DNA of 64,000 nucleotides from a bacterium (GTDB lineage Bacteria > Krumholzibacteriota > Krumholzibacteriia > LZORAL124-64-63): positions 69,467-133,466 of the forward strand of contig JADJYS010000014.1 of NCBI GenBank assembly GCA_016719645.1, in the 5' to 3' direction. Under the pieces are notes generated by a model. That model worked only from the letters and a program-made list of their open reading frames with translations. It searched no databases and had not been told where the DNA came from. The translations under genes and the position numbers were made by a program. Positions 1 through 63,740 of the stretch are shown piece by piece. Every line of letters begins with the position of its first letter. Position 1 is the first letter of the stretch.

Positions 1-123
1 GATATTGACGGCCCTGTCAAGGCAGGAATCCGCGCGGGCGGGCGCGTCGCCGCCATCGCCCGACGCGGTCGACCTGACGCGGTCCGCAGGTGCGGGAGCC
101 GTCTTCAACGAGAGGTTGTCGAG

Positions 124-4692: not shown

Positions 4693-4748
4693 CACCCGCG
4701 GCGTCAACCAGCGGCCCGGCGCGGCCGGACCCGCACCAGGAGCCGACC

Positions 4749-6462: not shown

Positions 6463-7155
6463 CTAGTAGAGAGCCTTGATCGTGCCCCAGCTCATGGTCT
6501 CCGAGGAGACCGTGCCTTCCGGACCGACGACCAGCGTGCCGAAGGGAGCCAGGTCGGTGACCCAGACGTTGACGCCGGTGGTCTGGAAGCCCCACTGCAC
6601 GTGGCGGGCCGGATCGTTGATGGCGACCTGCGACAGGCTGAACGGCCCGGGCGAGGACAGGACCACCGTGGTCTGCACGAACGACGAGAAGTCGGGGGCG
6701 AAGTCCTTGATGAAGGCCAGGACCGTGTGGGCGCTGGTCAGGGTGTTGGACAGGACCTCGCCGGAGAACGTCACGGTCTGGCCCGCGAGGGCGCCATCGA
6801 CCTGGGCGTAGAGGTTGGCTTCCATGATCTTGTTGCCCGGCGCGCCCGGACCGCCGCAGTTCGGCGGCGAGACCCCGCCGACGCACTGGTACCAGTACTC
6901 GTTCGGATCGCCGATCGTGTTCGGCCCCAGGGTCAGGATGGAGCCGCTGTAGACGGCCGTCAGATCGCCGATTCCCCAGCCGCTGCCCCACAGGAAGTTG
7001 CCGCCCAGATCGAACACGTTCATGTACCCGAAGGTGATCGCCGCCGGATCGACCGTGACGTCGGTCTGCGCCTGGGCGACGGCCGCGCCGAACGACACGA
7101 GCGCGAGCACGATCAACAGTGCGCGAAGAGCAACGTTACCATTTGTCCTCATCAT
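6463..7155 (-). CDS. Secreted protein of unknown function ending in the WGxIKALY tail
   Basis: Signal peptide (ALRALLIVLALVSFGAAVAQAQ). Extreme C-terminus is ETMSWGTIKALY*. Confidence 0.75.
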   Translation of the reverse strand: MMRTNGNVALRALLIVLALVSFGAAVAQAQTDVTVDPAAITFGYMNVFDLGGNFLWGSGWGIGDLTAVYSGSILTLGPNTIGDPNEYWYQCVGGVSPPNCGGPGAPGNKIMEANLYAQVDGALAGQTVTFSGEVLSNTLTSAHTVLAFIKDFAPDFSSFVQTTVVLSSPGPFSLSQVAINDPARHVQWGFQTTGVNVWVTDLAPFGTLVVGPEGTVSSETMSWGTIKALY

Positions 7156-15347: not shown

Positions 15348-15512
15348 CGCGCCCCCGCCTCGAACCTCGACACCCCTCCTCTTCTTTTTGCACGGATCCC
15401 TCTTTTTGATGTATCATTGTAGGATGTCGGCTCGGGAACCCAGCCGCCCCGTGTCCGGACGACCACCCGTGGGATCGAATCCCATGCATCCCCACACACC
15501 CGATCCGCGAGG

Positions 15513-18053
15513 ATGACAACGATGTCCAAAGTCGGAACCGAGGTCTTGTCCGCCCGCCACGCCGCCGCGCGTTGGGCCGTCCCGGCGCTGCTGCTGACGG
15601 CCGCCCTGCTGGCGATCCTGAGCCTGAACGCCGCGGCCGCCGACCGCGCCGCCAGCCCCGCCGCGTCCGCCGGCCTGCGCCCGTTGGCGGAGGTCGCGGT
15701 CTTCGCCGCCGACGTCGTCGACCGCGACCAGGCCCTCGCCGAGGACGACGTCCGCGCCCGCGACGGCGAGCCGCCCCGCTTCGCGATCCCCCAGCCGGCC
15801 TTCATCGCGCCGGACACCCACGGCTCGTGGGAGGTCCTGAACGAGAGCACCCGGCTGTGGCGCCTGCGCATCTCCAGCCCCGGCGCGCTGTCGCTGAACC
15901 TCGGGTTCACGCGCTTCGTCATGCCCGAGACCGGCCGCCTGCTGATCTACCCGGCCGACCTGTCGCAGCCGGCGATCGCCTTCACCGCCGCGGACAACCG
16001 CGACCACGGCCAGCTCTGGACGCCGATCATCCCCGGCGACGAGATGGTCGTCGAGGTGCAGATCGCGGCCAAGGCCGCGGCCGACCTGGAGCTGGAGCTG
16101 ACCTCGGTGAACGTGGGCTACAAGACCTTCGGCGAGACCCTGGTCGACAAGTCCGGCGCCTGCAACATCGACGTCGTCTGCCCCGAGGGCGACGGCTGGC
16201 GGGACGACATCCAGTCGGTGGCCGTGATCTCCACCGGCGGCAGCACCTTCTGCTCCGGCTTCATGGTCAACAACACCGCCCAGGACGAGCGCTCCTTCTT
16301 CATGACGGCCTACCACTGCGGCATCCACACCTCGCAGGCGCCGACGCTGGTCACCTACTGGAACTTCAACAGCCCGACCTGCGGCCAGCACGGCGGCGGC
16401 TCGCTCTCGCAGTTCCTGACCGGCAGCACCTTCCGCGCCGAGTCCAGCGCGTCGGACTTCACGCTGGTCGAGCTGAACTCCGTGCCCGACGCTTCCTGGA
16501 ACGTCGCCTACGCGGGCTGGGACCGCGGCGCCCAGAATCCGACCTCGGCCACCGCGATCCACCATCCCAACACCGACGAGAAGAGCATCAGCTTCGAGAA
16601 CGATCCCCTGACCACGACCACCTACCTGCAGGAGGCCGTGCCCGGCAACGGCACACACCTGCGCGTCGCGGACTGGGACGCGGGCACCACCGAGGGCGGC
16701 TCCTCCGGCTCGCCGCTGTTCAACCAGAACCACCACGTCGTGGGCCAGCTGCACGGCGGCTACGCGGCCTGCGGCAACAACCTCTCGGACTGGTACGGGC
16801 GCTTCTCCCGGTCCTGGACCGGCGGCGGCACTTCGGCCACGCGCCTGAGCAACTGGCTCGACCCGCTGAACACCGGCGCGCAGACGCTCGACCTGCTGGC
16901 GCCCTACGCCAGCGGCCTGCGCGTCGCCCCGGCCTCCGGCCTGTCCACGCAGGGCGACGTCGGCGGCCCGTTCGCGCCCGCGAGCAAGGACTACACGCTG
17001 ACCAACGCCGGCGACGCCGCCGTCGGCTACCTGGTCGCGGCCGACGTGGCCTGGGTCACCGTCGCCAACGGCAGCGGCACGATCCCCGCGGGCGGCGACG
17101 TCGTCGTCACCGTCACGGTCAACGCCGCGGCGAACACGCTGCCGACCGGCGTCCACACCGGCACGCTGTCGTTCACCAACACCACCGACCACGACGGCGA
17201 CCTCACGGCGCCCCTGTCGCTGCAGGCCGGCCTGCCCGAGCTGGTCTACGGGTTCGACATGAGCACCAACCCGGGCTGGACCGTCGAGGGCCAGTGGGCC
17301 TGGGGCGTGCCGACCGGCGCCGGCGGGGCCTACGGCGAGGCCGATCCCACGGGCGGCTGGAACGGCGGCGCGGTCTACGGCTACAACCTGGCCGGCGACT
17401 ACGCCAACAGCCTGCCCGAGCGCCACCTCACCACGACCGCCCTGGACTGCAGCGGCCTGTCGGCGGTCACCCTGAAGTTCCGGCGCTGGCTCAACGTCGA
17501 GCAGCCCGCCTACGACCACGCCTACGTGCGCGTCAGCAACGACGGCGTGAACTGGGTCACGGTCTGGCAGAACACCGCCGAGATCGCCGACGCCGCCTGG
17601 TCCCTCGCCGAGTTCGACATCTCGGCGGTGGCCGACGGGCAGAGCACGGTCTACGTGCGCTGGACCATGGGCAGCACCGATTCCAGCTGGCAGTACTCCG
17701 GCTGGAACCTCGACGAGGTCGAGATCTGGGGCCTCCAGCGCTCGCAGGGCACCGGCGCCGGCGACCTGCCGCAGGCCGGCGCCCGGCTGCGCCCGCTGTC
17801 CCCCAACCCGTTCAACCCGCGCACCGAGGTCCGCTTCGACCTGCCGACGGCCGGCCCGGCCCGCCTCGCGGTCTACGACGTGCGCGGCCACCTGGTGAAG
17901 GTCCTGAGCGACGGCGAGCTGCCCGCGGGCGAGCACGCCGCCGTCTGGGACGGCACCGACGCGCGCGGCCGCGCCATGAGCAGCGGCAGCTACGTCTTCC
18001 GGCTGACGGCCGGCGACGTCGTCCACACCCGCAAGGGGGTGCTGGTCCGCTGA
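15513..18053 (+). CDS. Secreted trypsin-fold serine endopeptidase (lysyl-endopeptidase-like S1 family) with C-terminal T9SS-like domain
   Basis: Signal peptide. Motifs CNIDVVCPEG, TAYHCG and GGSSGSPLF (catalytic Ser). C-terminus NPFNPRTEVRFDLPTAGPARLAVYDVRGHLVKVL...WDGTDARG. Confidence 0.85.
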   Translation: MTTMSKVGTEVLSARHAAARWAVPALLLTAALLAILSLNAAAADRAASPAASAGLRPLAEVAVFAADVVDRDQALAEDDVRARDGEPPRFAIPQPAFIAPDTHGSWEVLNESTRLWRLRISSPGALSLNLGFTRFVMPETGRLLIYPADLSQPAIAFTAADNRDHGQLWTPIIPGDEMVVEVQIAAKAAADLELELTSVNVGYKTFGETLVDKSGACNIDVVCPEGDGWRDDIQSVAVISTGGSTFCSGFMVNNTAQDERSFFMTAYHCGIHTSQAPTLVTYWNFNSPTCGQHGGGSLSQFLTGSTFRAESSASDFTLVELNSVPDASWNVAYAGWDRGAQNPTSATAIHHPNTDEKSISFENDPLTTTTYLQEAVPGNGTHLRVADWDAGTTEGGSSGSPLFNQNHHVVGQLHGGYAACGNNLSDWYGRFSRSWTGGGTSATRLSNWLDPLNTGAQTLDLLAPYASGLRVAPASGLSTQGDVGGPFAPASKDYTLTNAGDAAVGYLVAADVAWVTVANGSGTIPAGGDVVVTVTVNAAANTLPTGVHTGTLSFTNTTDHDGDLTAPLSLQAGLPELVYGFDMSTNPGWTVEGQWAWGVPTGAGGAYGEADPTGGWNGGAVYGYNLAGDYANSLPERHLTTTALDCSGLSAVTLKFRRWLNVEQPAYDHAYVRVSNDGVNWVTVWQNTAEIADAAWSLAEFDISAVADGQSTVYVRWTMGSTDSSWQYSGWNLDEVEIWGLQRSQGTGAGDLPQAGARLRPLSPNPFNPRTEVRFDLPTAGPARLAVYDVRGHLVKVLSDGELPAGEHAAVWDGTDARGRAMSSGSYVFRLTAGDVVHTRKGVLVR

Positions 18054-34757: not shown

Positions 34758-36278
34758 TTACCTCGCCAGGACCATCTTGCAGGCGGACCGCTCCGTGCCC
34801 GTCTTCACCTCGCAGAAGTAGACGCCGCTCGGCAGGGCGCGGCCTGCATCGTCACGGCCATCCCACCGCAACCTGATCACGCCGGCGGGACGGGACGCGT
34901 CGCTCAGCAGCACGCGCCGCAGCTTGCCGCCGGCATCGAAGACCCGCGCCGAAACCGGGGTGTCGGACGCCAGCGCGAATTCGATCTCGGTGGCGGGATT
35001 GAACGGGTTGGGGTTGGTCTTCACCGTGAGGCGCGCCGGGGGAACCGCCGCCGGCGCGCTGCCCGTGGGGTCGACGACGGGATCGAAGGCGTAGACCGCG
35101 CCCGCGTTGAGCGCGGTGTCGCTGTCCTTGCCGGCGCCGACCAGGACGCATCCGCCGTCGATGCCGACCGCGATGCCGAAATCGTCGTTCTGATTGCCGC
35201 CCGTGGCGGCCAGCCTCAGCAGCTCGGCGCCCGTCGCGACGTTGAAGACGTAGGACAACCCCGTCCGCGGCGTGCCGTAGCCCTGCTGGGTGGCGCCGAT
35301 CACGGCCAGATCGCCCGCGAGCGCGACGGAGCTGCCGAACCAGTCGGCGTAGTCCGCGTCCGCGGGGGTCAGCCTGTGCAGTTCCGCGCCGGTGGCGACG
35401 TCGAAGACGTAGGCCGCGCCGGCGTCTTCGTCCCCGCCGCCCCAGTAGGCGCCGACCAGCAGGGTGCGGCCGCAGATCGCCACCGCATTGCCGAAACGGT
35501 CGTAGGCGCCCCGGTCGCTGGCGGTCAGCCGCCAGAGCTCGACGCCGGTCCGCGGATCGAAGACGTAGACCGCGCCGCAGTCCGTCCTGCCGGGGGCGTC
35601 CCACATGGGAGCGCCGATCACCGCGAACGAGTCCGATACCGCCACCGCGTACCCGAACTGGTTCTGGCGGCCGAAGTCCGCGGCGACCAGCTTCCGCACC
35701 TGCACGCCGGTGTCCGGATCGAACAGGTACGCCGCGCCGCTGTCGTAGATCGAGACGCTGGCGTCGCAGTAGCGGGCGCCCACCAGGACGAACGAGTCCG
35801 AGACGGCCACGGCGCAGCCGAACTGGTCGTTCGCGGCGGCGTCGGCGGCCGTGAGCTTCCAGCGCTGGATCCCGTCGTCGGCCCCGAAGAGGTAGGCCGC
35901 GCCCGCATCGACGGCGGAGTGGTCGTCCCGCAGCGCGCCGATCACGGCACGCAGCCCGCGGAGCCCCACCGCGCAGCCGAAGTAATCGCCGCCGGCCGCG
36001 TCCGCGGCCCTCAGCTTGCGAGCCTGGACGTAACCGTCCAGGTCGAAGACGTAGGCGCAGCCGGAGTCGCCGCCGTCGTCGTCGTTCGCCTGGGCGCCGA
36101 TCAGGGCGAGTTCGCCCGACACGGCAAGGCTGATGCCGAAGCGGTCTCCGAGCGCCGCGTCGGCGGCCTGGATCCTGGTTTCGGTCGGCGTCGCCGACGC
36201 CGTGACGGCGCAGGCCAGACAGGCGAGGATGGTCGACGTCAAAAATCCGATGGGTGACTTCGCATCATCGTTCGACAT
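34758..36278 (-). CDS. Secreted FG-GAP-like repeat protein with C-terminal T9SS-like domain
   Basis: Repeated DxFGxAVAxxGxxxLIGA...YVFD units. C-terminus NPFNPATEIEFALASDTPVSARVFDAGGKLRRVL. Confidence 0.75.
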   Translation of the reverse strand: MSNDDAKSPIGFLTSTILACLACAVTASATPTETRIQAADAALGDRFGISLAVSGELALIGAQANDDDGGDSGCAYVFDLDGYVQARKLRAADAAGGDYFGCAVGLRGLRAVIGALRDDHSAVDAGAAYLFGADDGIQRWKLTAADAAANDQFGCAVAVSDSFVLVGARYCDASVSIYDSGAAYLFDPDTGVQVRKLVAADFGRQNQFGYAVAVSDSFAVIGAPMWDAPGRTDCGAVYVFDPRTGVELWRLTASDRGAYDRFGNAVAICGRTLLVGAYWGGGDEDAGAAYVFDVATGAELHRLTPADADYADWFGSSVALAGDLAVIGATQQGYGTPRTGLSYVFNVATGAELLRLAATGGNQNDDFGIAVGIDGGCVLVGAGKDSDTALNAGAVYAFDPVVDPTGSAPAAVPPARLTVKTNPNPFNPATEIEFALASDTPVSARVFDAGGKLRRVLLSDASRPAGVIRLRWDGRDDAGRALPSGVYFCEVKTGTERSACKMVLAR

Positions 36279-36378
36279 GGTTCCCCCCTATGAAAAATCC
36301 GATCGCATGCTGCCGCCCCGCGGATGTCCGGACGGGATGCGCCACGCTCATTCTACGCCCGCCGCACCGCAAACGGAA

Positions 36379-36464: not shown

Positions 36465-39400
36465 TCACCTGACGAGCATCATGTTGCGCTGCTGCGACTT
36501 CCCGTCCGCCTGCAGCCGGTACACGTACGCCCCGCTGGCGGCGTTCCCGCCCCGGTCGTCGCGCCCGTCCCAGACCACGGAGTGCGCGCCGGCCTCCCGG
36601 CTCCCCTCCACCAGGCTCCGCACCTGCCGCCCGCGCACGTCGTAGATGCGCAGGCTCACCGGACCGGCCTGCGGCAGCGAGAAGCGGATGACGGTGGACG
36701 GGTTGAACGGGTTGGGCGCGTTCTGCGCCAGCGTCGCGCCGCGGTCCGGCGTGCCGTCGTCCGCGCCGGTCGGGCTGCCGACCTGGATCGACAGGTTGTC
36801 CACGACCCAGCCCCAGCCGTTGACGGCGCCGTCGGCGTAGAACCGCCAGCGCAGCAGGATCGTGTCGCGCACGGCGAAGGCGTCGTGCAGGTCGAAGACG
36901 TGCGGCCGCAGCAGCGAGGAGCTGCCGGGCGTGCCGCTGTTCCAGGCGGTGACCCAGGCGGCGTCGCGCCGGCTGTCGTAGCCGTCGGCGATCGGCACCC
37001 AGGTGACGCCGTCCTTGCTGCCCTCCAGGATCACGTAGTCCCAGAAATCGCTGTCGCCGTAGACGCTGCCCGCCTCGCCCGGCTCGACCAGCACGACCTC
37101 GTCGAAGGAGACGTAGGCGTTCGACTGGGCGACGACGATCGGCACCGCGAGCATGGCCGTGTAGGCGGCGTTGTCGGGGTAGTCGTGCGGGAAGTGCAGG
37201 GCGCCGCCGCTGAAGCCGGCGTAGGCGCCGATGGTGAACCCGTCGCCGACGAAGTCGCCGGACGTGCTGAAGCTGTTCGTGTAGGCGGAGAGCGGCGCGG
37301 CGTACACGAACACCTCGAGCTCGCGCGTCACCGAGTCGTAGGCGACGCCGCCGCGGAAGGCGCGGGCGAACACGAGGCGCTGGCCGGCGCTCAGCACGGG
37401 CAGCTGCACCAGGGCGTCCTGCTGGAAGCCGCTGGCCGGCAGGGTGGCGCGCCGGACGCCGTCGACGAAGACCTGGGTGGAGTCGTAGGCGGACCGCAGG
37501 TTCAAATCGACGCTCAGCAGGCCGTCGGGGCCCTGGTAGAGGGCGTCGATGAGCGGCTTGAAGGTCTTGCCCGCGACCAGCGAGGGGAACTTCGCGCTCC
37601 AGATGCCGCGGCCGTGGCTGCCGATCACGACCTCGTCCTCGACCTCGGTCATCGACCAGATCGCCACGCTGGGCAGGCCGTTGTCGGCGAGCTCCCAGCT
37701 GGCGCCGCCGTCCAGCGACTCGACCAGGCCGATCTCGGTGCCGGCCCACAGGTGGTCGGGGTCGTCGGAGAACACCTGCAGGTCGTACACCGCCACGTCG
37801 GGGAAGCCGTTGGTGCTGGGGCTGCCGCCCGCGAAGCCCGTGATGTCGTTCCAGGTCTGTCCCAGGTCGTCCGTCCGGAGGATCTTGGGCCGGCCCGCGA
37901 AGCTGAACAGGACGTAGGCGACCGCGGGGTCGGCCGGGTGGGTGGCCAGGCCCGAGATGCCGCCCATGGTCGCGCCCGTGTAGTTCGGCACCACGCCGAA
38001 GGTGAGGCCGCCGTCGGTGGAGACGTGGATGCGCCCGCTGCCGTCCATGCGGGCGCCCGCCCAGACGATGTCGGGATCGGCGCGCGAGATCTTCACGGCG
38101 TGGAAGCTGCTGATCGAGCTCCAGGTCGCCGACGACACCGGGGTGAGCGACCAGCTGCCGCCGAAGTCCGTCGAGCGCCAGACGCCGCTGGCGCCGACGG
38201 CGAGCAGCAGGTCGGGCGCCTGGTTGGTCTTGGCGATCTTGGTGATGAAGGGGGCCAGGCCGGCGCCCGTGTCGCCCAGGCCGCCGGTGGCGCCGTTCCA
38301 GCTCTGGCCGCCGTCCAGCGAGCGCAGGAATCCGTTGTACTGGTAGCCGCCGATCATCTTCAGCGGGTCGTCGAAGTGCCACGAGGTCTCGTAGCCGTCG
38401 CCGCCGATGGCGAAGGTCCAGGGGGCGAGCCGGTCCGGGTCGGGTCCCGAGAACCAGGTGCCGTTGTCCTGCATGCCGCCGAAGTAGGCGCTGGCGCCGG
38501 GGCGCTTGTCGACGCCGTAGAACTGGGTGGTGGTCATGCCGTCGATGGGGGCGCTCCAGTTGGCGGCCTGGCTCGCGGCGACGCCGACGCCGCCGTCGTT
38601 GGTGTTCAGCAGGCGCCAGGCGCCGCCGCCGGTCGGCACCACCGCCAGGCCGTGGTGGTCCACGTGGACCGGCCCGACGCTCAGCTGGCTCGTGGTGCGG
38701 CTGGTGCCCGAGAGCGTGATCTGCCACAGGCGCACGCCGCCGACGTAGACGATGTTCACGTCGGTGGGGTGGCAGACGATGGTGTTGTCGTACCAGCCCT
38801 GCGCGCCCAGCCAGTTGGGCTCCGAGCCGCTCTCGAAGGTCTCGGACCAGGTCGCGCCGGCGTTGGTCGAGATCCACAGCTCGGAGTGGCTGGCGCCCTC
38901 GGCGGCGGCGTAGAGGCGGCTCGTGTTGACCGGCGAGACGGCCAGCTCGAAGCGGCCGCTCAGGTCGGCGATGCCGGTGTTGACGTAGGCCCAGCTGTTG
39001 CCGGCGTTGGTCGACTTCAGGATGCCGCCCTCGTCGACGGTCGCGTACAGCACGTTGAAGTTGCCGGGCGTGGCCACGATCTGCTGGATCTTCTTGACGC
39101 GGCCGAAGGTGCCGATGTCGGTGATCGCGTGCACCTCGGCCCAGTTCGCCCCGCCGTCGGTCGACTTGAAGATGCTCGAGCGCTGCAGCACCGAATCCTT
39201 GTAGCGCCCGACGGTCGTCACGGCCAGCACGACGTTGGCGTTCGCGGGGTCGACCACGATCCGGGCCACGTTGTTGAAGGCCGGGTCGTCGACGGTCGCC
39301 GGCAGGTGCGCCCAGGTCTGGCCGCGGTCGGTCGACTTCAGGATGCCGTTGCCGTTGATGGTGTCGACGTTGAAGAAGCTCTCGCCGGTGCCGGCGTACA

Positions 39401-39989
39401 GGACGTCGTGGTTGCTCGCGGCCATGGCCAGCGCCTGGACCGACAGCACCGGGAAGTCCGACGTCAGGTCGCTCCAGGTGGCGCCGCCGTCGGCGGTCTT
39501 CCAGACGCCGCCGCCCGCCGTCCCGATGTACCAGGTCAGGGCGGCCGGGTCGTCGGGATCGACCACGATCGCGCGGGCGCGGCCGGCGACGTTGCCGGGG
39601 CCGCGGTTCTCCCAGGCCAGCGTCGCGGCGGGCGAGCGCTTCGCCGCGCGCGCCGTGGCCAGCTCGCGCACCAGGTAGCCGGCCTCGTACTCGGGCTCCT
39701 TGCGGTCGGCGGGGATGCGCATCTCGTTCATCAGCCGCGCGAACTCCTCGGGCGCCTCGAAGGCCGGCAGGCCCGCGAGCCGGCGCGCGATGCGCTCGAT
39801 CTTGTGCCCGGCCTTGAAGCGGTCGGACGAGCCGGGCGCGGCGTGGTCGCGACGCAGTTCCAGCTTCGCGAGCTCGCGCGCGAAGGGATCGTCCTGCTCG
39901 CGGATGCCCGAGCCGGCCAGGAAGGACGCGGTGCCGATCGCGAGCACGCCCGCGACGGTCAACAGGGCAGGGATCCGGGAGAAACGCAT
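36465..39989 (-). CDS. Secreted BNR/Asp-box repeat (sortilin/VPS10-like) protein with C-terminal T9SS-like domain
   Basis: Signal peptide MRFSRIPALLTVAGVLAIG. Multiple S-x-D-G-G-x-T-W repeats. C-terminus NPFNPSTVIRFSLPQAGPVSLRIYDVRGRQVRSL. Start set by the ORF-track frame (may be off by 1). Confidence 0.8.
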   Translation of the reverse strand: MRFSRIPALLTVAGVLAIGTASFLAGSGIREQDDPFARELAKLELRRDHAAPGSSDRFKAGHKIERIARRLAGLPAFEAPEEFARLMNEMRIPADRKEPEYEAGYLVRELATARAAKRSPAATLAWENRGPGNVAGRARAIVVDPDDPAALTWYIGTAGGGVWKTADGGATWSDLTSDFPVLSVQALAMAASNHDVLYAGTGESFFNVDTINGNGILKSTDRGQTWAHLPATVDDPAFNNVARIVVDPANANVVLAVTTVGRYKDSVLQRSSIFKSTDGGANWAEVHAITDIGTFGRVKKIQQIVATPGNFNVLYATVDEGGILKSTNAGNSWAYVNTGIADLSGRFELAVSPVNTSRLYAAAEGASHSELWISTNAGATWSETFESGSEPNWLGAQGWYDNTIVCHPTDVNIVYVGGVRLWQITLSGTSRTTSQLSVGPVHVDHHGLAVVPTGGGAWRLLNTNDGGVGVAASQAANWSAPIDGMTTTQFYGVDKRPGASAYFGGMQDNGTWFSGPDPDRLAPWTFAIGGDGYETSWHFDDPLKMIGGYQYNGFLRSLDGGQSWNGATGGLGDTGAGLAPFITKIAKTNQAPDLLLAVGASGVWRSTDFGGSWSLTPVSSATWSSISSFHAVKISRADPDIVWAGARMDGSGRIHVSTDGGLTFGVVPNYTGATMGGISGLATHPADPAVAYVLFSFAGRPKILRTDDLGQTWNDITGFAGGSPSTNGFPDVAVYDLQVFSDDPDHLWAGTEIGLVESLDGGASWELADNGLPSVAIWSMTEVEDEVVIGSHGRGIWSAKFPSLVAGKTFKPLIDALYQGPDGLLSVDLNLRSAYDSTQVFVDGVRRATLPASGFQQDALVQLPVLSAGQRLVFARAFRGGVAYDSVTRELEVFVYAAPLSAYTNSFSTSGDFVGDGFTIGAYAGFSGGALHFPHDYPDNAAYTAMLAVPIVVAQSNAYVSFDEVVLVEPGEAGSVYGDSDFWDYVILEGSKDGVTWVPIADGYDSRRDAAWVTAWNSGTPGSSSLLRPHVFDLHDAFAVRDTILLRWRFYADGAVNGWGWVVDNLSIQVGSPTGADDGTPDRGATLAQNAPNPFNPSTVIRFSLPQAGPVSLRIYDVRGRQVRSLVEGSREAGAHSVVWDGRDDRGGNAASGAYVYRLQADGKSQQRNMMLVR

Positions 39990-40068
39990 GGTACGACCTC
40001 GAAGGGGTAGGGCGTTGGGGAAAGGTCCGGCCGGCGGGTGCCGACAGGATATCAAAAATACGTCTCCG

Positions 40069-40695
40069 CTACAAGGTCGGGGCGCCGTCGAAGAAGTCCA
40101 CGACGCCGGTCTCGAGCGAGTAGTCCGCCCCGACGACGAGCAGCCCGTCCTCGCGGATCAGCTTCTCGAGGATGGCCGACCCGTGCCGCAGGTGGTCCGC
40201 GGAGACGCGGATGTTGGCCCGCACGGCCTGCTGCACCAGCTCCTGCGGCCGGTGCCGCAGCTCCGACGCGAGCAGCGGCGCCACCGAGGGTCGGATGCGG
40301 TCGACGATCGCGCGCAGGTTGTGCGAGTGGGCGTCGGGCGGGCGCCCCAGGGTCTCGAGCGTGGCCAGGATCGCCCCGCACTCCGAATGCCCGAGCACGA
40401 CCACCAGGCGCGTGCCGTACTGCTCCGCCGCGAACTCGACGCTGCCGACCTGCGACGGGGCGACGATGTTGCCCGCGACCCGGATGACGAACAGGTCGCC
40501 GAGCCCCTGGTCGAAGACGAGCTCCGCCGGCACCCGCGAATCGGAGCAGCCCAGGATGATGGCGTGCGGTTCCTGGCCGGCCGTCAGCTCGAGGCGGCGG
40601 GCCTGCCGCACGCGCGGGTCGCAGTTGCGGACCTCGTTCACGAAGCGCCGGTTGCCCTCGCGCAGACGCTCCAGGGCCGCGTGCGCCGTGATCAT
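40069..40695 (-). CDS. Beta-class carbonic anhydrase
   Basis: AAGGAGG SD. ILGCSDSRV...VLGHSECGA zinc ligands. Confidence 0.9.
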   Translation of the reverse strand: MITAHAALERLREGNRRFVNEVRNCDPRVRQARRLELTAGQEPHAIILGCSDSRVPAELVFDQGLGDLFVIRVAGNIVAPSQVGSVEFAAEQYGTRLVVVLGHSECGAILATLETLGRPPDAHSHNLRAIVDRIRPSVAPLLASELRHRPQELVQQAVRANIRVSADHLRHGSAILEKLIREDGLLVVGADYSLETGVVDFFDGAPTL

Positions 40696-54279: not shown

Positions 54280-55365
54280 TCATTTCGCGAGCGTCACCCG
54301 GACCACGCCGGCGCCCGAAGCCGTCGACAGCCGCGCCAGGTAGACCCCCGAGGCCGCGCTCCGGCCCGCGGCGTCGCGGCCGTCCCAGCTCGCCTCGTGC
54401 GCCCCGGCGGCCAGGTTGCCGTCGATCAGCGTCCGGACCAGGCGGCCGGTGACGTCGTAGACCGCGAGCCTGGCGGAGCCGGCGGCCGGCAGGGCGAAGC
54501 GGATCGTGGTCGTCGGATTGAAGGGGTTGGGATGGACGTCCGTGAAGAAGGCGGTTGCGGCCGCCGCGGGGGCGTCCACCGCGTCTTCCCCCGCCGCCGC
54601 GACCAGCGCGGCGACGAGCAGCGGGCCGGCGACCAGGTTGGCGGCGGCGTTGGGGTGCGAGTCGGGGCTGCTGCAGCTCGTGCTCTTGCAGTAGTTCGCA
54701 CGCAGGGTGTTGCGGTCCTCCGCGTCGCGCGGCGAGGCCAGGACGTCGAAGAGATCGAAGAAGCGCAGGTTCGGATGCCCGCCCAGGAAGGCGGTCGAGC
54801 CGAGCCAGTCGGCGAAGGCCCGCCCCCGGTCGGCCTCGGTCGACGTCGAGAGGCAGGGGTGCATCGGCGGCGAGGACATCAGCAGGAAGACGTGGTCCGG
54901 GTGCTGGTCGAGCACGTCACGGATCTCGAGGTACCAGGCCTTGTACTGCGCCAGCATCGCGTCGGTCTCGATGAGCGACGCCCCGTAGCAGGACTTGAAG
55001 GCGATGACCTGGTGATTGGCGAGGATGGAGTCGCGCGCCGAGTTGGCCGTGGTCCAGAGCTGGTGGAGGCCGACCACGTACGTGTCGTCGTCGGGGATGT
55101 CGTAGTAGCGGTCCGCCAAGTCGCCGTCGGGGTCCATCAGGCCGATGGCGTTGTAGTCGTGGTCCCACAGCACGAGCCGGGTCCCGCGCTGGACGTTGTG
55201 GTCGTCGAGGAGCTGCCGCACGTTCCCTTCCTCCAGGATGTTGCGGCCCACGGAATGGTGCAGCACGAACAGGTTGGTCAGCGACAGGGCCGGACTCGGC
55301 GCGGCGGCGGTCACCAGCCACACCGTCAGAAGCGCGAGGCACGCGCTGTAGGTTCGATTCGACAT
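54280..55365 (-). CDS. Secreted protein of unknown function with C-terminal T9SS-like domain
   Basis: Signal peptide MSNRTYSACLALLTVWLVTAAAPSPA. C-terminus HPNPFNPTTTIRFALPAAGSARLAVYDVTGRLVRTL...WDGRDAAG. Confidence 0.75.
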   Translation of the reverse strand: MSNRTYSACLALLTVWLVTAAAPSPALSLTNLFVLHHSVGRNILEEGNVRQLLDDHNVQRGTRLVLWDHDYNAIGLMDPDGDLADRYYDIPDDDTYVVGLHQLWTTANSARDSILANHQVIAFKSCYGASLIETDAMLAQYKAWYLEIRDVLDQHPDHVFLLMSSPPMHPCLSTSTEADRGRAFADWLGSTAFLGGHPNLRFFDLFDVLASPRDAEDRNTLRANYCKSTSCSSPDSHPNAAANLVAGPLLVAALVAAAGEDAVDAPAAAATAFFTDVHPNPFNPTTTIRFALPAAGSARLAVYDVTGRLVRTLIDGNLAAGAHEASWDGRDAAGRSAASGVYLARLSTASGAGVVRVTLAK

Positions 55366-55864
55366 GATCTCTCCCATCCACATTGAACGACGGACGGCGA
55401 ACCGGAAGCCCGGAACCATCCCGCCTCCGCCTGCGGCGCGGCCGCAACGACGGAGTTCGCCATCGGGATGGCCACCATCCGCCCCTGCCACTTCCGTGCC
55501 GCGGTCATGTCATTGAATAATATGACGATACGATTTCGGCGGCCGGTGCAGCTCCATCATAAAAGACGCGGCGCCGATTCCTGGATCGACGCGCGTCGCC
55601 TCGCCGCGCGCGATGCGCCCGCGATCCCGATCCTGCAGAGAGGCGTGAACGGCGGCGACCCGGCGCTCCCGGCGGCTTCACGCCCGCTCGCCTCGCGGCC
55701 TCGATCATGTCCGGCCGGTTCGGTCTTTGCACGATGGAACGAACGGGACGACAACCTCATCCTGATGCACACCCCACCTTTATGATGGGACCTCGAGACA
55801 CCGCACGGCGGCCGCGTTCACGGTGGTTCTCCAGAATCTCCTGAATCGGATCATGCAACACGCA

Positions 55865-58224: not shown

Positions 58225-58836
58225 TCAGCGGGTCAGGACCAGGGCGCGGGTGGAGGTCCGACCCTCGCTGCGGGCCTGGACGAGGTAGAGACCGGAAGGG
58301 GCGGGACGGCCGTCGGGGCCGCTCGCGTCCCACTCGTATTCGTGATCGCCGGCCGCGAGCGTCGCGGCGCTCCAGGTGCGCAGCAGCCGGCCGCCGGCGT
58401 CGTAGACGCTCAGCTGCACCGGCGCTTCCCGCCTCACGACGAGCCGCAGCTTGGTCGCGCCCGCGCTCGGGTTGGGCCAGGGCAGGGCCAGGCGCATCGC
58501 CGGCAGGTCCGCGGCCAGGGGCACGTCGGTGACGTCGTCGGCGACCTCGACGCCGTTGCGGTAGGCGACGACGTAGTCGTCGACCCGCACCTCCAGCGTG
58601 TAGACGCCGGCGGCGAGGCCGTCGAGGCAGTAGCGGCCGGTAGCGTCGGTGGCCGCATGGTCGCCGGTGTAGGCTCCGGCCGCGGTGCGCAGGAAGATGC
58701 CCGCCTGCGCGACGGGACCGCCGGTCGTGACGTCGGTGACGAGGCCGCAGATCGACGCGGCCGACGAGGGACCGGCGGCCAGCAGGGCGAGCAGAAGCGG
58801 CGGGATCGACCGGCGCGAGAAGCGGGTCGGCGGCAT
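58225..58836 (-). CDS. Secreted CarbopepD_reg-like domain protein with a degenerate T9SS-like C-terminal domain
   Basis: Signal peptide IPPLLLALLAAGPSSAAS. ...GRYCLDGLAAGVYTLEV. C-terminus WPNPSAGATKLRLVVRREAPVQLSVYDAGGRLLRTW. Confidence 0.65.
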   Translation of the reverse strand: MPPTRFSRRSIPPLLLALLAAGPSSAASICGLVTDVTTGGPVAQAGIFLRTAAGAYTGDHAATDATGRYCLDGLAAGVYTLEVRVDDYVVAYRNGVEVADDVTDVPLAADLPAMRLALPWPNPSAGATKLRLVVRREAPVQLSVYDAGGRLLRTWSAATLAAGDHEYEWDASGPDGRPAPSGLYLVQARSEGRTSTRALVLTR

Positions 58837-59126
58837 GGCGATTTCCCCCGGTGGCAGGACCGACTCCATCCCCGGCGTTCCGTCGACAGGCGCGTTCGAG
58901 CCGCCGAGGCCGCCGGAGACATGCGGGCGAACGGGCAGTCTACCACCACTCGGGAACAATAGGACTAATTTAATCCTTATTACAGGATAAGGTGCTGATC
59001 GAATTCCGGATCTCGAAGACGCTCGTTCAGTTGCGCGAGCCGCCCTGTTCGGCGTTAGGCGTGATGATCATCGATCATTCGCTCATCTTTGATAGCATCG
59101 AGATATCCGCACATCCGGCCCTGTGC

Positions 59127-59885
59127 CTACCTGTAGAGCACCTTGAGTTGACCCCAGTTCGCCGCTTCCTCGTGGACGTCCGTGACGGGCACGGCCCGCG
59201 ACCGGCCGTCGATCAGGTTGAACTCGAACCGCAGCTTGGCCTGCGGCGCCGTCGTCTCGAAGATGAAGTTGTCGCCGATGAACATGTTGTAGTGGACGCC
59301 CAGATTGCAGTAGTCCCAGGTGCCGACGACACGGAACTTGTACTCGTAGACTCCCGGGGCGCCGATCGTCACGTCGGTGAACCAGCCCGCCTCCCCCGTC
59401 TCGACCGGAACGCCGGTCAGCCAGTCGCCCAGTTCGGGCGCGCCGCCGATCAGCTCGAACTCGAATCCCGGTGTGAGGCTGATGTGGTCGCAGGCGACGG
59501 CGTTGGTCGCCGGCTGCCAGCCGCCGCCCAGCGTGTTGGTGTCGAGCCGGAAGTGGATCACGTCGCCGGGGTATTCCAGGTAGAGGACGGCGTTGGCCAG
59601 CGGGTGCATCCCATTGAACGGGTAGCTCTCGGACCAGTCGGCCGTGGCGATCTTCCAGCCGTGGCTGCCGGGAGCCTGGTCCGCGGTCACGAAGGCGCCG
59701 TGCACGCCGTCGTCCGCCGCGCCGTCGCCGTGCTGGCCGTCGTCGAACAACTCGTTGCCGGCATCGCAGCTCCAGATCCCGCCCGTGCCGGCGTAGAAGG
59801 TGCCGCGGGCATAGAAGGGACCGGCGAGCGCCGGGGCCGCGGCCGCGAACAGCAACAGGATCCAGGGAAGTGCCCTTGTCTTCAC
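59127..59885 (-). CDS. Secreted protein with CBM-like beta-sandwich region ending in the WGxLKVLYR tail
   Basis: GTG start 9 nt after GGAGG. Signal peptide ...AAAPALA-GP. C-terminus EEAANWGQLKVLYR*. Confidence 0.7.
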   Translation of the reverse strand: MKTRALPWILLLFAAAAPALAGPFYARGTFYAGTGGIWSCDAGNELFDDGQHGDGAADDGVHGAFVTADQAPGSHGWKIATADWSESYPFNGMHPLANAVLYLEYPGDVIHFRLDTNTLGGGWQPATNAVACDHISLTPGFEFELIGGAPELGDWLTGVPVETGEAGWFTDVTIGAPGVYEYKFRVVGTWDYCNLGVHYNMFIGDNFIFETTAPQAKLRFEFNLIDGRSRAVPVTDVHEEAANWGQLKVLYR

Positions 59886-59905
59886 GGCGGTCAACCTCCC
59901 GGTGC

Positions 59906-60835
59906 TCAGATTCCCGGCGTCGTCGACAGATAGAGCGCCTTGATGGCGCCCCAGTCGATGCTCTCGTCCATCGGCGCGGACGACCGCGCCGCCGAGAGCC
60001 CGACGACCAGTTCCTGGTGGCCGATCAGGTAGAAGTGGCAGCGGGTGCCGCCGCCGGGCTGCGCTTCTGCCATCGCCTTCACGTAGAACCGCTGCAGCGA
60101 GAACACCGTGATGGTGCTCGGATCTTCGGTGTCCAGATCGAAGACGACCCGCACCTCGAAGAAGGCCTGCGTGGCGTAGGGAAAGTAGGGGTCGTTCCCG
60201 GGAGCGACATCCCAATCGGAGAAGCGCACGAGCCGCTCGAACTCGACGTCGCGCACGCCGACCATCGGCTCGCCGCCGGGGCCGTGCCCCGGCTCGCCGG
60301 CGAACATGTTGGCCGTGGACTGGAGGTCCTCGGCGCGCGTGTAAACGCCGCTCGGAGGCGCCGCGGAGCTCCCCTCGGCGAAGACGAAGCGGAAGTCCGG
60401 GTGCAGGGCGGCGCCGTACTCGCCGAGGTCCATCTCGTCGTAGGCGTTGCGGAAGTTGGTCATGAGCTGCTGCGGGGTGTCGGGGAACGGGAAGCGGTCG
60501 ACGTAGGTCCCGGCGAACTCGACCTCCTCGCCGGCGGCCAGCGCCTGGGTCGCCGTCGCGGGTTCGGGAGCCGACCAGCCGGCCACGTCCCCCCAGGCGA
60601 GCGTGTAGTCGCCCGGGGCGAGATCCGCGAACGTCGCGTCGCCGGATCCCGACTGCGCGTAACCGTCCGGTCCCGTCACCTGCCACGGCGCCGCGAGGTC
60701 GTCGGGCGTGGCGTCGATCGCCAGCGTGCCGGTCAGCGGCACGACGGGCTGATGTTCATCGCCACAGCCGACGGCGACGGCGACGGCGAACGCCACCACG
60801 AGCATGCCGCGCGCGCACCGGAAGGGCCTGTGCAT
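59906..60835 (-). CDS. Lipoprotein, paralogue of 63084..63740, ending in the WGAIKALY tail
   Basis: AVAVAVGCGDE lipobox. Shared FPDTPQQLM..FRNAY...LHPDFRFVFA...STITV..LQRFYV motifs. C-terminus ESIDWGAIKALYLSTTPGI*. Start from the ORF-track frame. Confidence 0.7.
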   Translation of the reverse strand: MHRPFRCARGMLVVAFAVAVAVGCGDEHQPVVPLTGTLAIDATPDDLAAPWQVTGPDGYAQSGSGDATFADLAPGDYTLAWGDVAGWSAPEPATATQALAAGEEVEFAGTYVDRFPFPDTPQQLMTNFRNAYDEMDLGEYGAALHPDFRFVFAEGSSAAPPSGVYTRAEDLQSTANMFAGEPGHGPGGEPMVGVRDVEFERLVRFSDWDVAPGNDPYFPYATQAFFEVRVVFDLDTEDPSTITVFSLQRFYVKAMAEAQPGGGTRCHFYLIGHQELVVGLSAARSSAPMDESIDWGAIKALYLSTTPGI

Positions 60836-61087
60836 GGTTCCCCCCTCACGTCGATCATGATGGGCGATGAGTCCATGTCTCAATGACGATCATACACGAA
60901 TGAGAAGCAACCTGCACGACCGGCCCCAGGGCTGTTAATAACCGCCGCACCGCGCGGACGGCGCTTCGTCCGTCGTGCGGCGACTGGCAACGCACCGCCC
61001 GATCGGGTAGAATCGCCGTCTCCCGCGCGGTTCCCCGACGCCGTCGGCGGCGGGACCGATCACGACGCGGGACGATCGGAGGGTCCC

Positions 61088-62338
61088 GTGACCGCTTCCC
61101 TGACGCGTCCGCTCCTCACCGTCGCCCCCTGCCTGCTGTGCCTGCTGCTCGCCTGCTCCGACGGCGCGCCCGTCGTCGAGGACGAGGACACGGACACGAC
61201 CCCGCCCGACGCGATCACCGACCTGATCGCCCTGAACCCGACCTCGCAGTCGGCCACGCTGTATTGGACGGCCCCCGCCGACCGCCGCGACGACGGCGCG
61301 GACGGTTCGGTCGTCGCCTACGACCTGCGGGTGGCGGACGCCACGATCACCGAAGACAACTTCGACCAGGCGCGGGCGGTGGCAGGCGTCCCGGCGCCGG
61401 CGACGCCGCAGCTGATCCAGAGCCTGATCGTGACCGGGCTGACCCCGGGCGCCGCCAGCCACTTCTCGCTGCGGTCGCGCGACGCCGAGGGGAACTGGAG
61501 CGCCGTCTCCGACTGCCCCCACGTCGACTGCACGGCGCCCGTGGCCGTGGAATTCCCCGACCCCGGCCTGGAGCAGGCGATCCGCGCGCACGTCCACCGG
61601 CCGGCCGGCGGGCTGACCTCGTCGGACGTGGACACCATCCTGCACTTCACGGCCGCGGGAGCCGGGATCGCCGACCTGTCGGGGATGCAGGCCTGCCTGT
61701 CGCTGCGGACCGCCCGCCTGAGCGACAACGACATCGCCGGGCTCGAACCGCTGCGGCACCTGATCGACCTGCGCGGACTCTACCTGGACACGAACGCGGT
61801 GAGCGACCTGGAACCGCTCGCCGGCCTGCTGGACCTCCAGCAGCTCCACCTCACCTGGAACCCAGTCACCGACCTCTCGCCGCTGGTCATGCTGCAGCAG
61901 ATCCGGCAGCTGACCCTCTCGGGCACCGTCATCGCCGACTACACGCCGCTGACCTTCCTGGGGTACCTCAACGACCTCTACCTCGGCGACATGGAGCTGC
62001 AGAACATCGACTTCCTGGTGAACCTGCGCCAGCTGCGCCTGCTCAACCTGGAGATCAACCACATCCAGTCGCTGGAGGCGCTCCGGTACCACGACATGAT
62101 CGAGTCGCTCAACCTGATGCAGAACGGCATCGTGGATCTCGCACCGCTGGCCGGATTGACGAACCTGCGGAACCTGAACCTGGCCGGCAACCTCGTGGCC
62201 GACCTGCAGCCGCTGCTCGACAACGCGGGCCTGGGAGCGGGCGACGCCGTGGACCTCAGGAACAACCCGCTCTCGGCGCAGGCGCTGGCGGTGCAGGTGC
62301 CCGCGCTGGAGGGGCGCGGGGTGGTCGTGCAGCATTGA
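61088..62338 (+). CDS. Lipoprotein with fibronectin-III-like domain and leucine-rich repeats (internalin-like LRR)
   Basis: GTG start after GGAGGG. LLLACSDG lipobox. Repeated LxxLxxLxLxxNxIxDLxPL units. Confidence 0.8.
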   Translation: MTASLTRPLLTVAPCLLCLLLACSDGAPVVEDEDTDTTPPDAITDLIALNPTSQSATLYWTAPADRRDDGADGSVVAYDLRVADATITEDNFDQARAVAGVPAPATPQLIQSLIVTGLTPGAASHFSLRSRDAEGNWSAVSDCPHVDCTAPVAVEFPDPGLEQAIRAHVHRPAGGLTSSDVDTILHFTAAGAGIADLSGMQACLSLRTARLSDNDIAGLEPLRHLIDLRGLYLDTNAVSDLEPLAGLLDLQQLHLTWNPVTDLSPLVMLQQIRQLTLSGTVIADYTPLTFLGYLNDLYLGDMELQNIDFLVNLRQLRLLNLEINHIQSLEALRYHDMIESLNLMQNGIVDLAPLAGLTNLRNLNLAGNLVADLQPLLDNAGLGAGDAVDLRNNPLSAQALAVQVPALEGRGVVVQH

Positions 62339-62399
62339 TCGCGGCTCGGGACGACCGACGGCGCGCGGCACCTCGTCCGTATGCGGATGACCAGAACAT

Positions 62400-62946
62400 T
62401 CACCGATAGAGCGCCTTGACCTCGCCCCAGCAGAGCTCCTCCACGGGTTCGGGATAGTACAGCCACCCCATCCCTCCGCTCGCGGAAATCCAGCCCGTCC
62501 CGTCCGCGGCGTCGACCAGGACGACGGCATCGTCGGGATGGGGCAGGACTTCGACGTCGTAGACGAGGCCCTGACCGAAGACGATGAAATCGCCCTCCCC
62601 CAGCAGGACGATCCCGGTGTTGTCCGCGACGAGCACCGGCTCGTAGTCGACCTGGACGCCGGTCTCCGGGGGAGCCGGAGACCGTGGACGGCGGGAGCGA
62701 GAGGCTGTCGGCGTGCACGAACACGTGCGGGTCCGTCTCCAGCCGGAACCGCGCGGCGCCCACCTGTTCGAGATTCCTGGCGACGAGATAGAAGCGGACG
62801 GCGCTGAATGAGCTGGAGTAGTGCCCCCAGACGATCGTGCCGGCCTCGTCGAAGTACACCCCGAGGCTCGGATGGCCGCGCGGCTGGGCGCTGCCGGACG
62901 CAGCCGCCAGCATGGTCAAGACGGCGACGACGAGACTCCTCCTCAC
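62400..62946 (-). pseudogene. Small secreted protein with WGEVKALYR tail, interrupted by a frameshift in a G5/C5 homopolymer
   Basis: N-terminal part (GTG 62946, signal peptide MRRSLVVAVLTMLAAASGSAQP) and C-terminal part (...CWGEVKALYR*) are in different frames. Removing one base of the GGGGG run at ~62668..62672 restores a single ~181-aa ORF. Confidence 0.6.
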
Positions 62947-63083
62947 GGGAACACCTCCGTTGTCCGGTGGATCCGTACGCGTCCGTCTATTCGGAACGCA
63001 GCGCCGCACGGGCGCAGGTCATTGTCGGCATGGTCGGCGCCTTTCGATGGAGTACCGCGATGGTGGTCCAGGAATGGATCGTA

Positions 63084-63740
63084 TCATCTGTCCGGCGGCG
63101 AGTAGATCGCCTTGACCGATCCCCAGCTCATCGCCTCGCTCGACAGGAGGAGCGCGGCCGGATCCTCGGGCCCGTAATCCCGTTGTCCGATCAGGCTGCA
63201 ACGCAGGCGGGCCGGGCCGTCCCGCCGGACGACGGGTTCCGAAACGACATAGAAGTCCTGCCGGGAATCGATCGTGATCGTGCTGTGCGCGGGCGTGTCC
63301 AGCAGCAGGACGATCTGCACGTCGTAGACGGCCCGGCGGGAACCCGGGAACCGGGGGTCGTCCAGCGGCACGTCCAGCCAGTCGGTCCGGCGTTCGAAGC
63401 GATAGATGTCGATGCCGAGAACCCCGGGTTTCGGCCAGCCCTCGAAATCCCATCCCTGCTCCCCGTCGAACATGCGCCCGGAGGTGGCGAGCTCCTGCTC
63501 GCGTGTGAAGGCGCCGCCGGGGGGCGCGACGGGGCTGTCCGCCGCGAACACGAAGGTGAAATCCGCGTGCAGCGCGTCGCGGTACCCGTCGATGTCCCTC
63601 TCGCCGTAGGCTTGGCGGAAATCCGCCATGAGCTGGTCCGGCGTCTCGGGGAACGGGATCGGATCCACTTCCGCTGGTCCGTCGCCGCCGCAGCCGGCCA
63701 GGACGGCGACGAGCAGGACGGCATGCTTCCAGGCGGGCAT
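63084..63740 (-). CDS. Lipoprotein, paralogue of 59906..60835, ending in the WGSVKAIY tail
   Basis: GGGAGGG SD. LLVAVLAGCGG lipobox. FPETPDQLMADFRQAY...LHADFTFVFA...STITI..RQDFYV. C-terminus EAMSWGSVKAIYSPPDR*. Confidence 0.75.
   Translation of the reverse strand: MPAWKHAVLLVAVLAGCGGDGPAEVDPIPFPETPDQLMADFRQAYGERDIDGYRDALHADFTFVFAADSPVAPPGGAFTREQELATSGRMFDGEQGWDFEGWPKPGVLGIDIYRFERRTDWLDVPLDDPRFPGSRRAVYDVQIVLLLDTPAHSTITIDSRQDFYVVSEPVVRRDGPARLRCSLIGQRDYGPEDPAALLLSSEAMSWGSVKAIYSPPDR

Follow-up and report, generated by a model that had tools for sequence, protein, structure and literature searches.

A conserved C-terminal peptide on unrelated exported proteins of Krumholzibacteriota and other bacteria: a candidate sorting or anchoring tag

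Introduction

Five exported proteins encoded within one 64-kb stretch of Krumholzibacteriota DNA (contig JADJYS010000014.1 of assembly GCA_016719645.1; the whole stretch of 64,000 nt is referred to as the window) end in nearly the same short peptide, and the question raised by this locus is what such a tail does on proteins that are otherwise mostly unrelated. A preliminary description of the window, made from the sequence alone, had proposed a new C-terminal sorting signal. The tail is a conserved module of about 17 residues, found almost always beside the stop codon, on exported passengers of very diverse families, where it excludes and replaces known C-terminal tags. On balance we favor the view that it is a portable targeting or anchoring peptide recognized by a component of the cell envelope.

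Five tail proteins in the window

All six reading frames of the window were scanned with the pattern W[GAS].[ILVM][KR].[ILVM][YFW] and with its strict form, WG.[ILVM]K.[ILVM][YF]. Five matches were found, all on the minus strand and all of the strict form, at distances of 0, 1, 1, 5 and 7 codons from the stop, and no internal or out-of-frame copy was present in the 64 kb. The ends, each followed directly by a stop codon, are SWGTIKALY, NWGQLKVLYR, DWGAIKALYLSTTPGI, CWGEVKALYR and SWGSVKAIYSPPDR, and they are the same five tails, at the same coordinates, that had been reported in the preliminary description. The proteins and their tail modules are as follows.

6463..7155, minus strand: P1, a 230-aa secreted protein of a family unassigned by Pfam or NCBIfam; signal peptide ending ...AVAQA, followed by QT
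6466..6513, minus strand: P1 tail module, GTVSSETMSWGTIKALY then stop
59127..59885, minus strand: P2, a 252-aa secreted protein with a choice-of-anchor X domain (residues 45-78); GTG start, signal peptide ending ...APALA, followed by GP
59130..59180, minus strand: P2 tail module, TDVHEEAANWGQLKVLYR then stop
59906..60835, minus strand: P3, a 309-aa lipoprotein with N-terminal Ig/PEGA-like and NTF2-like domains; lipobox AVGC
59909..59977, minus strand: P3 tail module, PMDESIDWGAIKALY plus LSTTPGI
62400..62946, minus strand: P4, a secreted protein of about 181 aa from the largest tail-bearing family; AxA-type signal peptide, frameshift near 62660
62403..62453, minus strand: P4 tail module, YPEPVEELCWGEVKALYR then stop
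63084..63740, minus strand: P5, a 218-aa lipoprotein with an NTF2-like core, paralogous to P3; lipobox LAGC
63087..63149, minus strand: P5 tail module, LSSEAMSWGSVKAIY plus SPPDR

The claim that all five proteins carry Sec or lipoprotein signal peptides was borne out, P1, P2 and P4 having a signal peptide of the AxA type and P3 and P5 a lipobox. For P4, the tail and the position of the gene stood, but an intact reading frame did not: the interval of 547 nt is not a multiple of three, and the N-terminal part of the protein lies in the frame of the open reading frame (ORF) 61978..63009 and the C-terminal part in that of ORF 62400..62636. Because the protein, when joined across the frameshift, aligns end to end with intact tail proteins of 183-202 aa from other genomes, P4 is either a pseudogene or the result of an assembly error.

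The tail is a module separate from its passengers

The five proteins were compared all against all with BLASTP. P3 and P5 are homologous (41% over 191 aa), and in every other pair similarity is confined to the last 9-27 residues; the five proteins therefore fall into four unrelated families, where at least three had been proposed. Searches against Pfam-A (2025) returned nothing for the five, and NCBIfam (June 2026) gave a single match, to the choice-of-anchor X model NF041940, which falls within the N-terminal part of P2 at 36.6 bits (cutoff 25) and covers the passenger, not the tail. P1, besides matching neither database, has no relative among the fetched tail loci.

The boundary between passenger and tail was resolved in the P3/P5 family. 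In an alignment with database homologues, the conserved core ends in L-[IV]-G-Q-x-D-L and is followed by 12-17 variable residues, then by M-S-W-G-S-[IV]-K-A-L-Y and 0-17 further residues, and two homologues from Latescibacteria (P0009 and P0010) terminate directly after the core, without linker or tail. An AlphaFold2 (AF2) model of P5, built from an alignment of 11 sequences, gave an NTF2-like core with a predicted local distance difference test score (pLDDT) above 90, a linker (residues 193-200) below 50, and a short helix at W206-I212 with a pLDDT of about 80. The core matched SnoaL and limonene-epoxide-hydrolase-like structures in Foldseek. A model of P2 from its single sequence was uninformative (pLDDT 33).

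Conservation acts on the peptide. A degenerate DNA motif matched three of the five sites, against 0.00 expected from 100 dinucleotide-preserving shuffles. The tail codons vary synonymously (GGC/GGT/GGA, GCT/GCG/GTG and TAC/TAT) and the flanking DNA is unrelated, so that selection acts at the protein level. The idea that the tail is no signal at all, being either the end of one diverged domain shared by the carriers or a nucleotide-level element at gene 3' ends, is thus scarcely credible. The preliminary description had itself raised the case of a last strand of a shared homologous domain; no Pfam or NCBIfam model spans the tail, no similarity between families extends past 27 residues, the passenger folds and Pfam domains are unrelated, and in the P3/P5 family a linker divides tail from core and tail-less homologues exist. 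The alignment, domain and codon comparisons together refute both forms of this idea.

Distribution and consensus of the tail

A set of 185,579 species genomes was scanned with the pattern TGGGGNNNNRTNAAGGCNCTNTAY, which yielded at least 120 loci from more than 100 metagenome-assembled genomes (MAGs). Labeled records among the matches listed comprise 32 Ca. Eisenbacteria, 11 Krumholzibacteri(i)a, 5 Latescibacter(i)ota, 4 Gemmatimonadota and 5 'uncultured Fibrobacteraceae', and about 50 loci are from MAGs classified only as 'bacterium'. Approximately 124 of the 135 matches listed lie within 7 residues of the stop, and in 86 of the 135 exactly one residue, mostly R, follows the Y; the matches farther from a stop are scattered in Pseudomonadota, Azospirillum, Acidimicrobiia and a nanoarchaeon, at the level that chance would give, or lie in Patescibacteria (see below). 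Motif copies in the same loci that fall outside the DNA pattern behave alike, with 31 of 31 located within 9 residues of the stop and none internal. In 833 kb of unrelated metagenome loci the motif occurred only seven times, every copy C-terminal.

A logo was drawn from 148 tails. Conservation at W, G, [IVM], K, A, L and Y is by construction, these being the positions that the scan demands; W and K are invariant, G is present in 146 of 148 and Y is near-invariant, with almost fixed spacing across distant phyla. At positions left free by the pattern, R follows the Y (position +8) in 109 of the 148 tails, T or S stands at -1 in 138 and S or T at -2 in 74, and a P-V lead-in is formed by P at -6 (83 tails) and V at -5 (75 tails), followed by E at -4 (84 tails). 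The number of residues after the Y varies from 0 to 20 and is most often just the R. The resulting consensus of about 17 residues reads P-[VT]-E-x-[ST]-[ST], a Pro-rich lead-in, followed by W-G-x-[IV]-K-A-L-Y-R. The family is broader than the strict motif, since variants with F for W and R for K are found among P2 relatives, and a neighboring secreted protein (L101, 5690-6391, plus strand) ends in TTFGSIKAMFKQAPG, with F replacing W. Many tails have a Cys 9-11 residues before the W, frequently in the form C-x2-C or C-x-C, which may mark a disulfide-bonded passenger end.

Carrier proteins and their export signals

The loci and the window together hold 149 ORFs that end in the tail, and the 137 gene-called carriers form 58 BLAST clusters when links of at least 50 aligned residues are required. 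Signal-like N-termini, called by a simple hydrophobicity-and-charge rule, were found in 109 of 129 carriers (84%) and in 120 of 464 other genes of the same loci (26%; odds ratio 15.6, p = 5e-34). With the position of the tail beside the stop, this amounts to extreme enrichment at the C-termini of exported proteins, which the preliminary description had proposed to look for in other genomes.

Pfam and NCBIfam scans of 128 carriers gave no model that covers the tail, and no single family matched more than 8 of them. All domain matches lie in the passengers (LTD, beta-helix, FG-GAP, X25/CBM20, CHRD, CAP, Chlamydia PMP repeats and choice-of-anchor W, X and J), which also resemble ExeM nuclease, PEP-CTERM PepA, rhombosortase- or myxosortase-dependent M36 peptidases and a T9SS-dependent DNase (T9SS, type IX secretion system). 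Modules of these kinds are characteristic of proteins at the cell surface or outside the cell, and their relatives carry known tags.

Exclusivity and interchange with known C-terminal signals

A hidden Markov model (HMM) of the FlgD-Ig C-terminal domain (CTD), built from 25 local domains, matched 7 ORFs of the window, 35 of 759 locus genes and none of the 137 carriers. The presence of seven FlgD-Ig/T9SS-type CTDs in the window, none of them on a tail protein, was thereby confirmed, and the two C-terminal signatures proved mutually exclusive among the carriers as well. The seven ORFs are listed here, four of them with Pfam FlgD_ig or Por_Secre_tail confirmed; among the passengers are a trypsin-like protease with BACON, FG-GAP repeats and CarboxypepD_reg.

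1..1095, plus strand: FlgD-Ig/Por_Secre_tail-type ORF
1221..6371, plus strand: FlgD-Ig/Por_Secre_tail-type ORF
15423..18053, plus strand: FlgD-Ig/Por_Secre_tail-type ORF
34758..36287, minus strand: FlgD-Ig/Por_Secre_tail-type ORF
36465..40157, minus strand: FlgD-Ig/Por_Secre_tail-type ORF
54280..55509, minus strand: FlgD-Ig/Por_Secre_tail-type ORF
58225..59067, minus strand: FlgD-Ig/Por_Secre_tail-type ORF

Interchange of the tail with recognized signals was observed in the P2 family. A phmmer search of 1.84 billion representative proteins returned 115 relatives of P2. Many are about 250 aa long and end in the tail or in one of its variants (TWGALKSRFR, SFGAIKAMYR, SWGTLRAMYR). In eight others the P2 domain is followed by a FlgD-Ig/T9SS-type CTD (P0014, P0021, P0066, P0067, P0085, P0091, P0093 and P0119), four of the same size as P2 have a PEP-CTERM end (P0079, P0110, P0118 and P0046; for example ...VPEPAALSLLGLGALAMTRRRR), and one (P0101) has an IPTL-CTERM-like end. 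Homologues of one passenger thus end in the tail, a T9SS-type CTD, PEP-CTERM or IPTL-CTERM, and the tail therefore fills the slot of recognized sorting or anchoring signals. The passengers themselves belong among the choice-of-anchor families, P2 by its score above the NF041940 cutoff and other carriers by their choice-of-anchor W, X and J domains.

The sole case joining both signatures is a gene fragment in locus L031 (minus strand, approximately 612-1085 in plus-strand coordinates) with a FlgD-Ig CTD whose last strand is replaced by SSRGLIKTLYRRGSSSP; its tail-like end, RGLIKTLYRR, is one nucleotide off the W (CGG versus TGG).

An N-terminal form in Patescibacteria

In two Patescibacteria MAGs (L006, Ca. 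Kerfeldbacteria, and L085) and in the relatives P0129, P0130 and P0132, the motif is located just past the signal peptide.

L006, 1277-1993, minus strand: protein with N-terminal motif
L006, 2800-3351, minus strand: protein with N-terminal motif
L085, 489-1271, minus strand: protein with N-terminal motif
L085, 3009-3851, minus strand: protein with N-terminal motif

This form, PV.R[ST][ST]WG.IKALYR (for example ERPVNRSSWGAIKALYRG), keeps the P-V, [ST][ST] and R positions that the scan pattern does not force, and it is followed by an S/T/P-rich linker and then by a domain of M23 peptidase, CHAP or unknown type. One M23 homologue (P0131) lacks both motif and linker. The peptide is therefore portable and, at least in Patescibacteria, does not need a free C-terminus.

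Neighboring genes

Genes for exported proteins form a dense island at the right end of the window (55.9-63.7 kb), in which a leucine-rich-repeat lipoprotein (61088..62338) sits between P3 and P4; a related contig (L201) shows partial synteny only, plus mobile elements. Across the other loci, GT-C-like (TMEM260/PMT_2-like) polytopic proteins with C-terminal TPR repeats directly adjoin tail genes of five families.

L007, 2978-5542: GT-C-like plus TPR protein
L009, 265-2373: GT-C-like plus TPR protein
L079, 2469-4727: GT-C-like plus TPR protein
L101, 3708-5642: GT-C-like plus TPR protein
L109, 4280-6250: GT-C-like plus TPR protein

This joint adjacency has a post hoc p of about 0.03. In an independent set of 80 metagenome loci that encode relatives of one of the GT-C-like plus TPR proteins, tail genes were adjacent in the four closest relatives only.

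Dockerin-like secreted proteins of about 190-260 aa, with two C-terminal repeats of the form DFDxSGxVNLxDF, adjoin proteins of the largest tail family in five loci.

L076, 5157-5945: dockerin-like repeat protein
L087, 1237-1806: dockerin-like repeat protein
L098, 1028-1648: dockerin-like repeat protein
L116, 626-1258: dockerin-like repeat protein
L120, 744-1451: dockerin-like repeat protein

A radical SAM gene adjoins homologous beta-helix tail proteins with CxxC just before the tail (for example GCDNCVSSPVEPTTWGAIKALYR) in L011, L020 (1515-2864), L064 and L074, an adjacency that is probably lineage synteny. The recurrent neighbors of tail genes besides the GT-C-like plus TPR proteins (Ser/Thr kinase, sigma-54 activator, extracytoplasmic function (ECF) sigma factor, radical SAM, molybdenum cofactor (MoCo) dehydrogenase, amidohydrolase and methyltransferase) were set aside as common genes or lineage synteny.

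Discussion

The tail is widespread and occurs far more often than chance would allow, and the sorting-tag interpretation is supported by the C-terminal enrichment, the export signals of the carriers, the exclusivity with the FlgD-Ig CTD and the interchange in the P2 family, and the tail is best classed as a terminal protein-sorting or anchoring tag with an architecture unlike all known ones. It is also, apparently, undescribed, as the preliminary description had supposed: no model in Pfam-A or NCBIfam describes the motif, a profile search of the PDB with the tail gave chance matches only, plus the designed coiled-coil heptad GEIKAL, and full-text literature searches, both for the motif itself and for sorting signals described from these phyla, yielded nothing on it.

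In its position and modularity the tag resembles known C-terminal sorting tags. PEP-CTERM/exosortase, IPTL-CTERM, GlyGly-CTERM/rhombosortase, MYXO-CTERM and LPXTG/sortase signals occupy the same slot on homologous choice-of-anchor passengers, and PEP-CTERM-type signals likewise follow a linker and occur on many paralogues per genome. Those signals are tripartite, with a motif, a transmembrane helix and a basic cluster, whereas the tag usually ends one residue past its motif and has no hydrophobic stretch after the Y. T9SS CTDs (type A, TIGR04183/PF18962, and FlgD-Ig-like, PF13860) are also C-terminal on Sec-exported and very diverse passengers, and they share phyla and genomes with the tag; but each is a folded domain of Ig type, 60-100 residues long and bearing motifs B, D and E, and neither the five proteins nor the 128 carriers matched PF18962, PF13860 or TIGR04183. 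Terminal amphipathic anchors, such as the C-terminal helix of PBP5/6 and the membrane-targeting sequence of MinD, are short terminal peptides behind a flexible linker, predicted helical and containing aromatic and basic residues; compared with these the tag is shorter and far more strictly conserved in sequence. Dockerins, in the dockerin-cohesin system, resemble the tag in being portable modules on many unrelated enzymes and at either protein end, but they bind Ca and are about 60-70 residues long, and we know of no cohesin-like receptor for the tail. A beta-signal of the beta-barrel assembly machinery (BAM), which calls for a beta-barrel passenger with an aromatic last residue and alternating hydrophobic positions, does not fit either, since the core of P5 is of the NTF2-like alpha+beta type, 109 of 148 tails terminate in R and the passengers include LTD, beta-helix and other soluble domains. 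Nor does a C-terminal Lys of the Braun-lipoprotein type, as the invariant K lies four residues before the terminal R and the last residue is K in 4 of 148.

In the scheme that we propose, the passenger would first cross the inner membrane via the Sec or lipoprotein pathway, with the peptide joined to its C-terminus by a flexible linker. A candidate envelope component, either a receptor protein or an enzyme, would then recognize the peptide itself and settle where the passenger finally resides, most likely by retaining it at, or delivering it to, the cell surface, so that the tag would be the functional counterpart of the PEP-CTERM, T9SS CTD and like anchors carried by homologous passengers elsewhere. 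The analysis establishes that the tag exists, where it sits, that it is modular and conserved, that its diverse passengers carry export signals and that it excludes and interchanges with known tags; that it determines where its passenger ends up, and by what manner of recognition, we infer. Non-covalent docking of a short, probably helical peptide is favored over transpeptidase-type cleavage at a free C-terminus because the tag has no membrane span, is followed by a variable number of residues and occurs N-terminally in Patescibacteria. Given also that W and K are invariant and G and Y nearly so, a dedicated receptor appears most likely. The earlier analogy to C-terminal sorting tags thus stands for position and modularity, whereas processing of the sortase, exosortase or T9SS type would be conjectural: a peptide for docking or anchoring is no less likely than a sorting signal that is cleaved.

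Several observations weigh against reading the tail as a peptide with an envelope partner of its own. No receptor, protease or transporter for the tail was identified among the recurrent neighbors of tail genes, no sorting enzyme (exosortase, sortase or rhombosortase) was seen among them, and the window contains no obvious partner candidate; the GT-C-like plus TPR protein was rejected as a general partner when it failed in the 80 independent loci. From the N-terminal form in Patescibacteria it follows that nothing intrinsic ties the motif to the C-terminus, and it is for this reason that a portable docking peptide is favored over a processing signal that depends on the carboxy terminus. The predicted tail helix rests on the one AF2 model described above. 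The mean hydrophobic moment of the tail, 0.475 at 100 degrees, compares with 0.37 +/- 0.18 for shuffles, 30% of which reach 0.475; it is not above shuffles, nor does it tell helix from strand. Finally, all carriers are from MAGs, in which gene starts and some taxon labels are uncertain.

The helix of P5 could be taken to mean that the tail serves as a generic anchor in the plane of the membrane, with a short amphipathic helix lying on a lipid leaflet and no dedicated partner, as in PBP5/6 or MinD. W, Y, K and R are typical interfacial residues, the motif is present at either protein end, and GxIKAL resembles designed helical heptads. We regard this as unlikely: the helix would span only 8-9 residues with a hydrophobic moment that is not above chance, the tag is restricted to few lineages, and the invariance of W and K, with near-fixed spacing, suggests a specific binding partner, as lipid-binding helices usually conserve character rather than sequence. 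The alternative of a periplasmic enzyme site, in which the tail would be a degron for a tail-specific protease, a glycosylation tag for GT-C/TPR proteins or a point of covalent attachment via its invariant Lys, draws on that Lys, on the [ST][ST] directly before the W, on the GT-C-like plus TPR proteins beside tail genes of five families and on a Y-R end that is reminiscent of the Y-R-K end of Braun's lipoprotein. It is improbable, as the GT-C adjacency is post hoc and was kept only by the closest relatives, the last residue is R and not K or non-polar, and a built-in degron across dozens of families is implausible.

Also quite unlikely, although attractive on several counts, is a minimal T9SS signal, that is, a third and very short class of CTD read by PorV/SprA-like components. 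The tag occurs in phyla related to the Fibrobacterota-Chlorobiota-Bacteroidota (FCB) group, in genomes rich in FlgD-Ig and Por_Secre_tail domains, from which it is strictly exclusive and with which it shares passenger families; the L031 fragment has its last CTD strand replaced by a tail-like end; and a conserved basic residue near the end is common to the tag and to CTD motif E (PMC11969387). Against this, even the briefest T9SS signals on record, the 'short CTDs' found in Prevotella, run to about 60 residues and contain motifs B, D and E (PMC11969387), compared with about 17 here. The tag has no Ig-like fold, and no T9SS component turned up in the window, where no search was aimed at them. 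The motif is also found, in its N-terminal form, in Patescibacteria, which to our knowledge have neither an outer membrane nor a T9SS.

A portable peptide with a dedicated envelope partner thus remains the favored reading, and what it would mean can be stated. LPXTG, PEP-CTERM, GlyGly-CTERM and the T9SS CTD each led to dedicated envelope machinery and are the main handle for prediction of surface proteomes; the present tag is shorter and simpler than any of these, with neither a membrane span nor a folded domain, and marks dozens of unrelated families in several phyla with no or few cultured members. It provides an immediate means to annotate a large class of 'hypothetical' exported proteins and sets up a concrete search for its partner. 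More tentatively, and as a possibility to which we give rather less credence than to the peptide itself, the tag may define an unrecognized pathway for envelope sorting or surface anchoring that has a receptor or enzyme of its own, runs parallel to the T9SS and serves hundreds to thousands of proteins, and the Patescibacteria peptide may direct M23 and CHAP hydrolases to an envelope component that is conserved and might belong to a host cell; the N-terminal reuse of the peptide on these cell-wall hydrolases hints at such a conserved target. If this is true, the pathway would be common to Eisenbacteria, Krumholzibacteriota, Latescibacterota, Gemmatimonadota-labeled genomes and related uncultured lineages.

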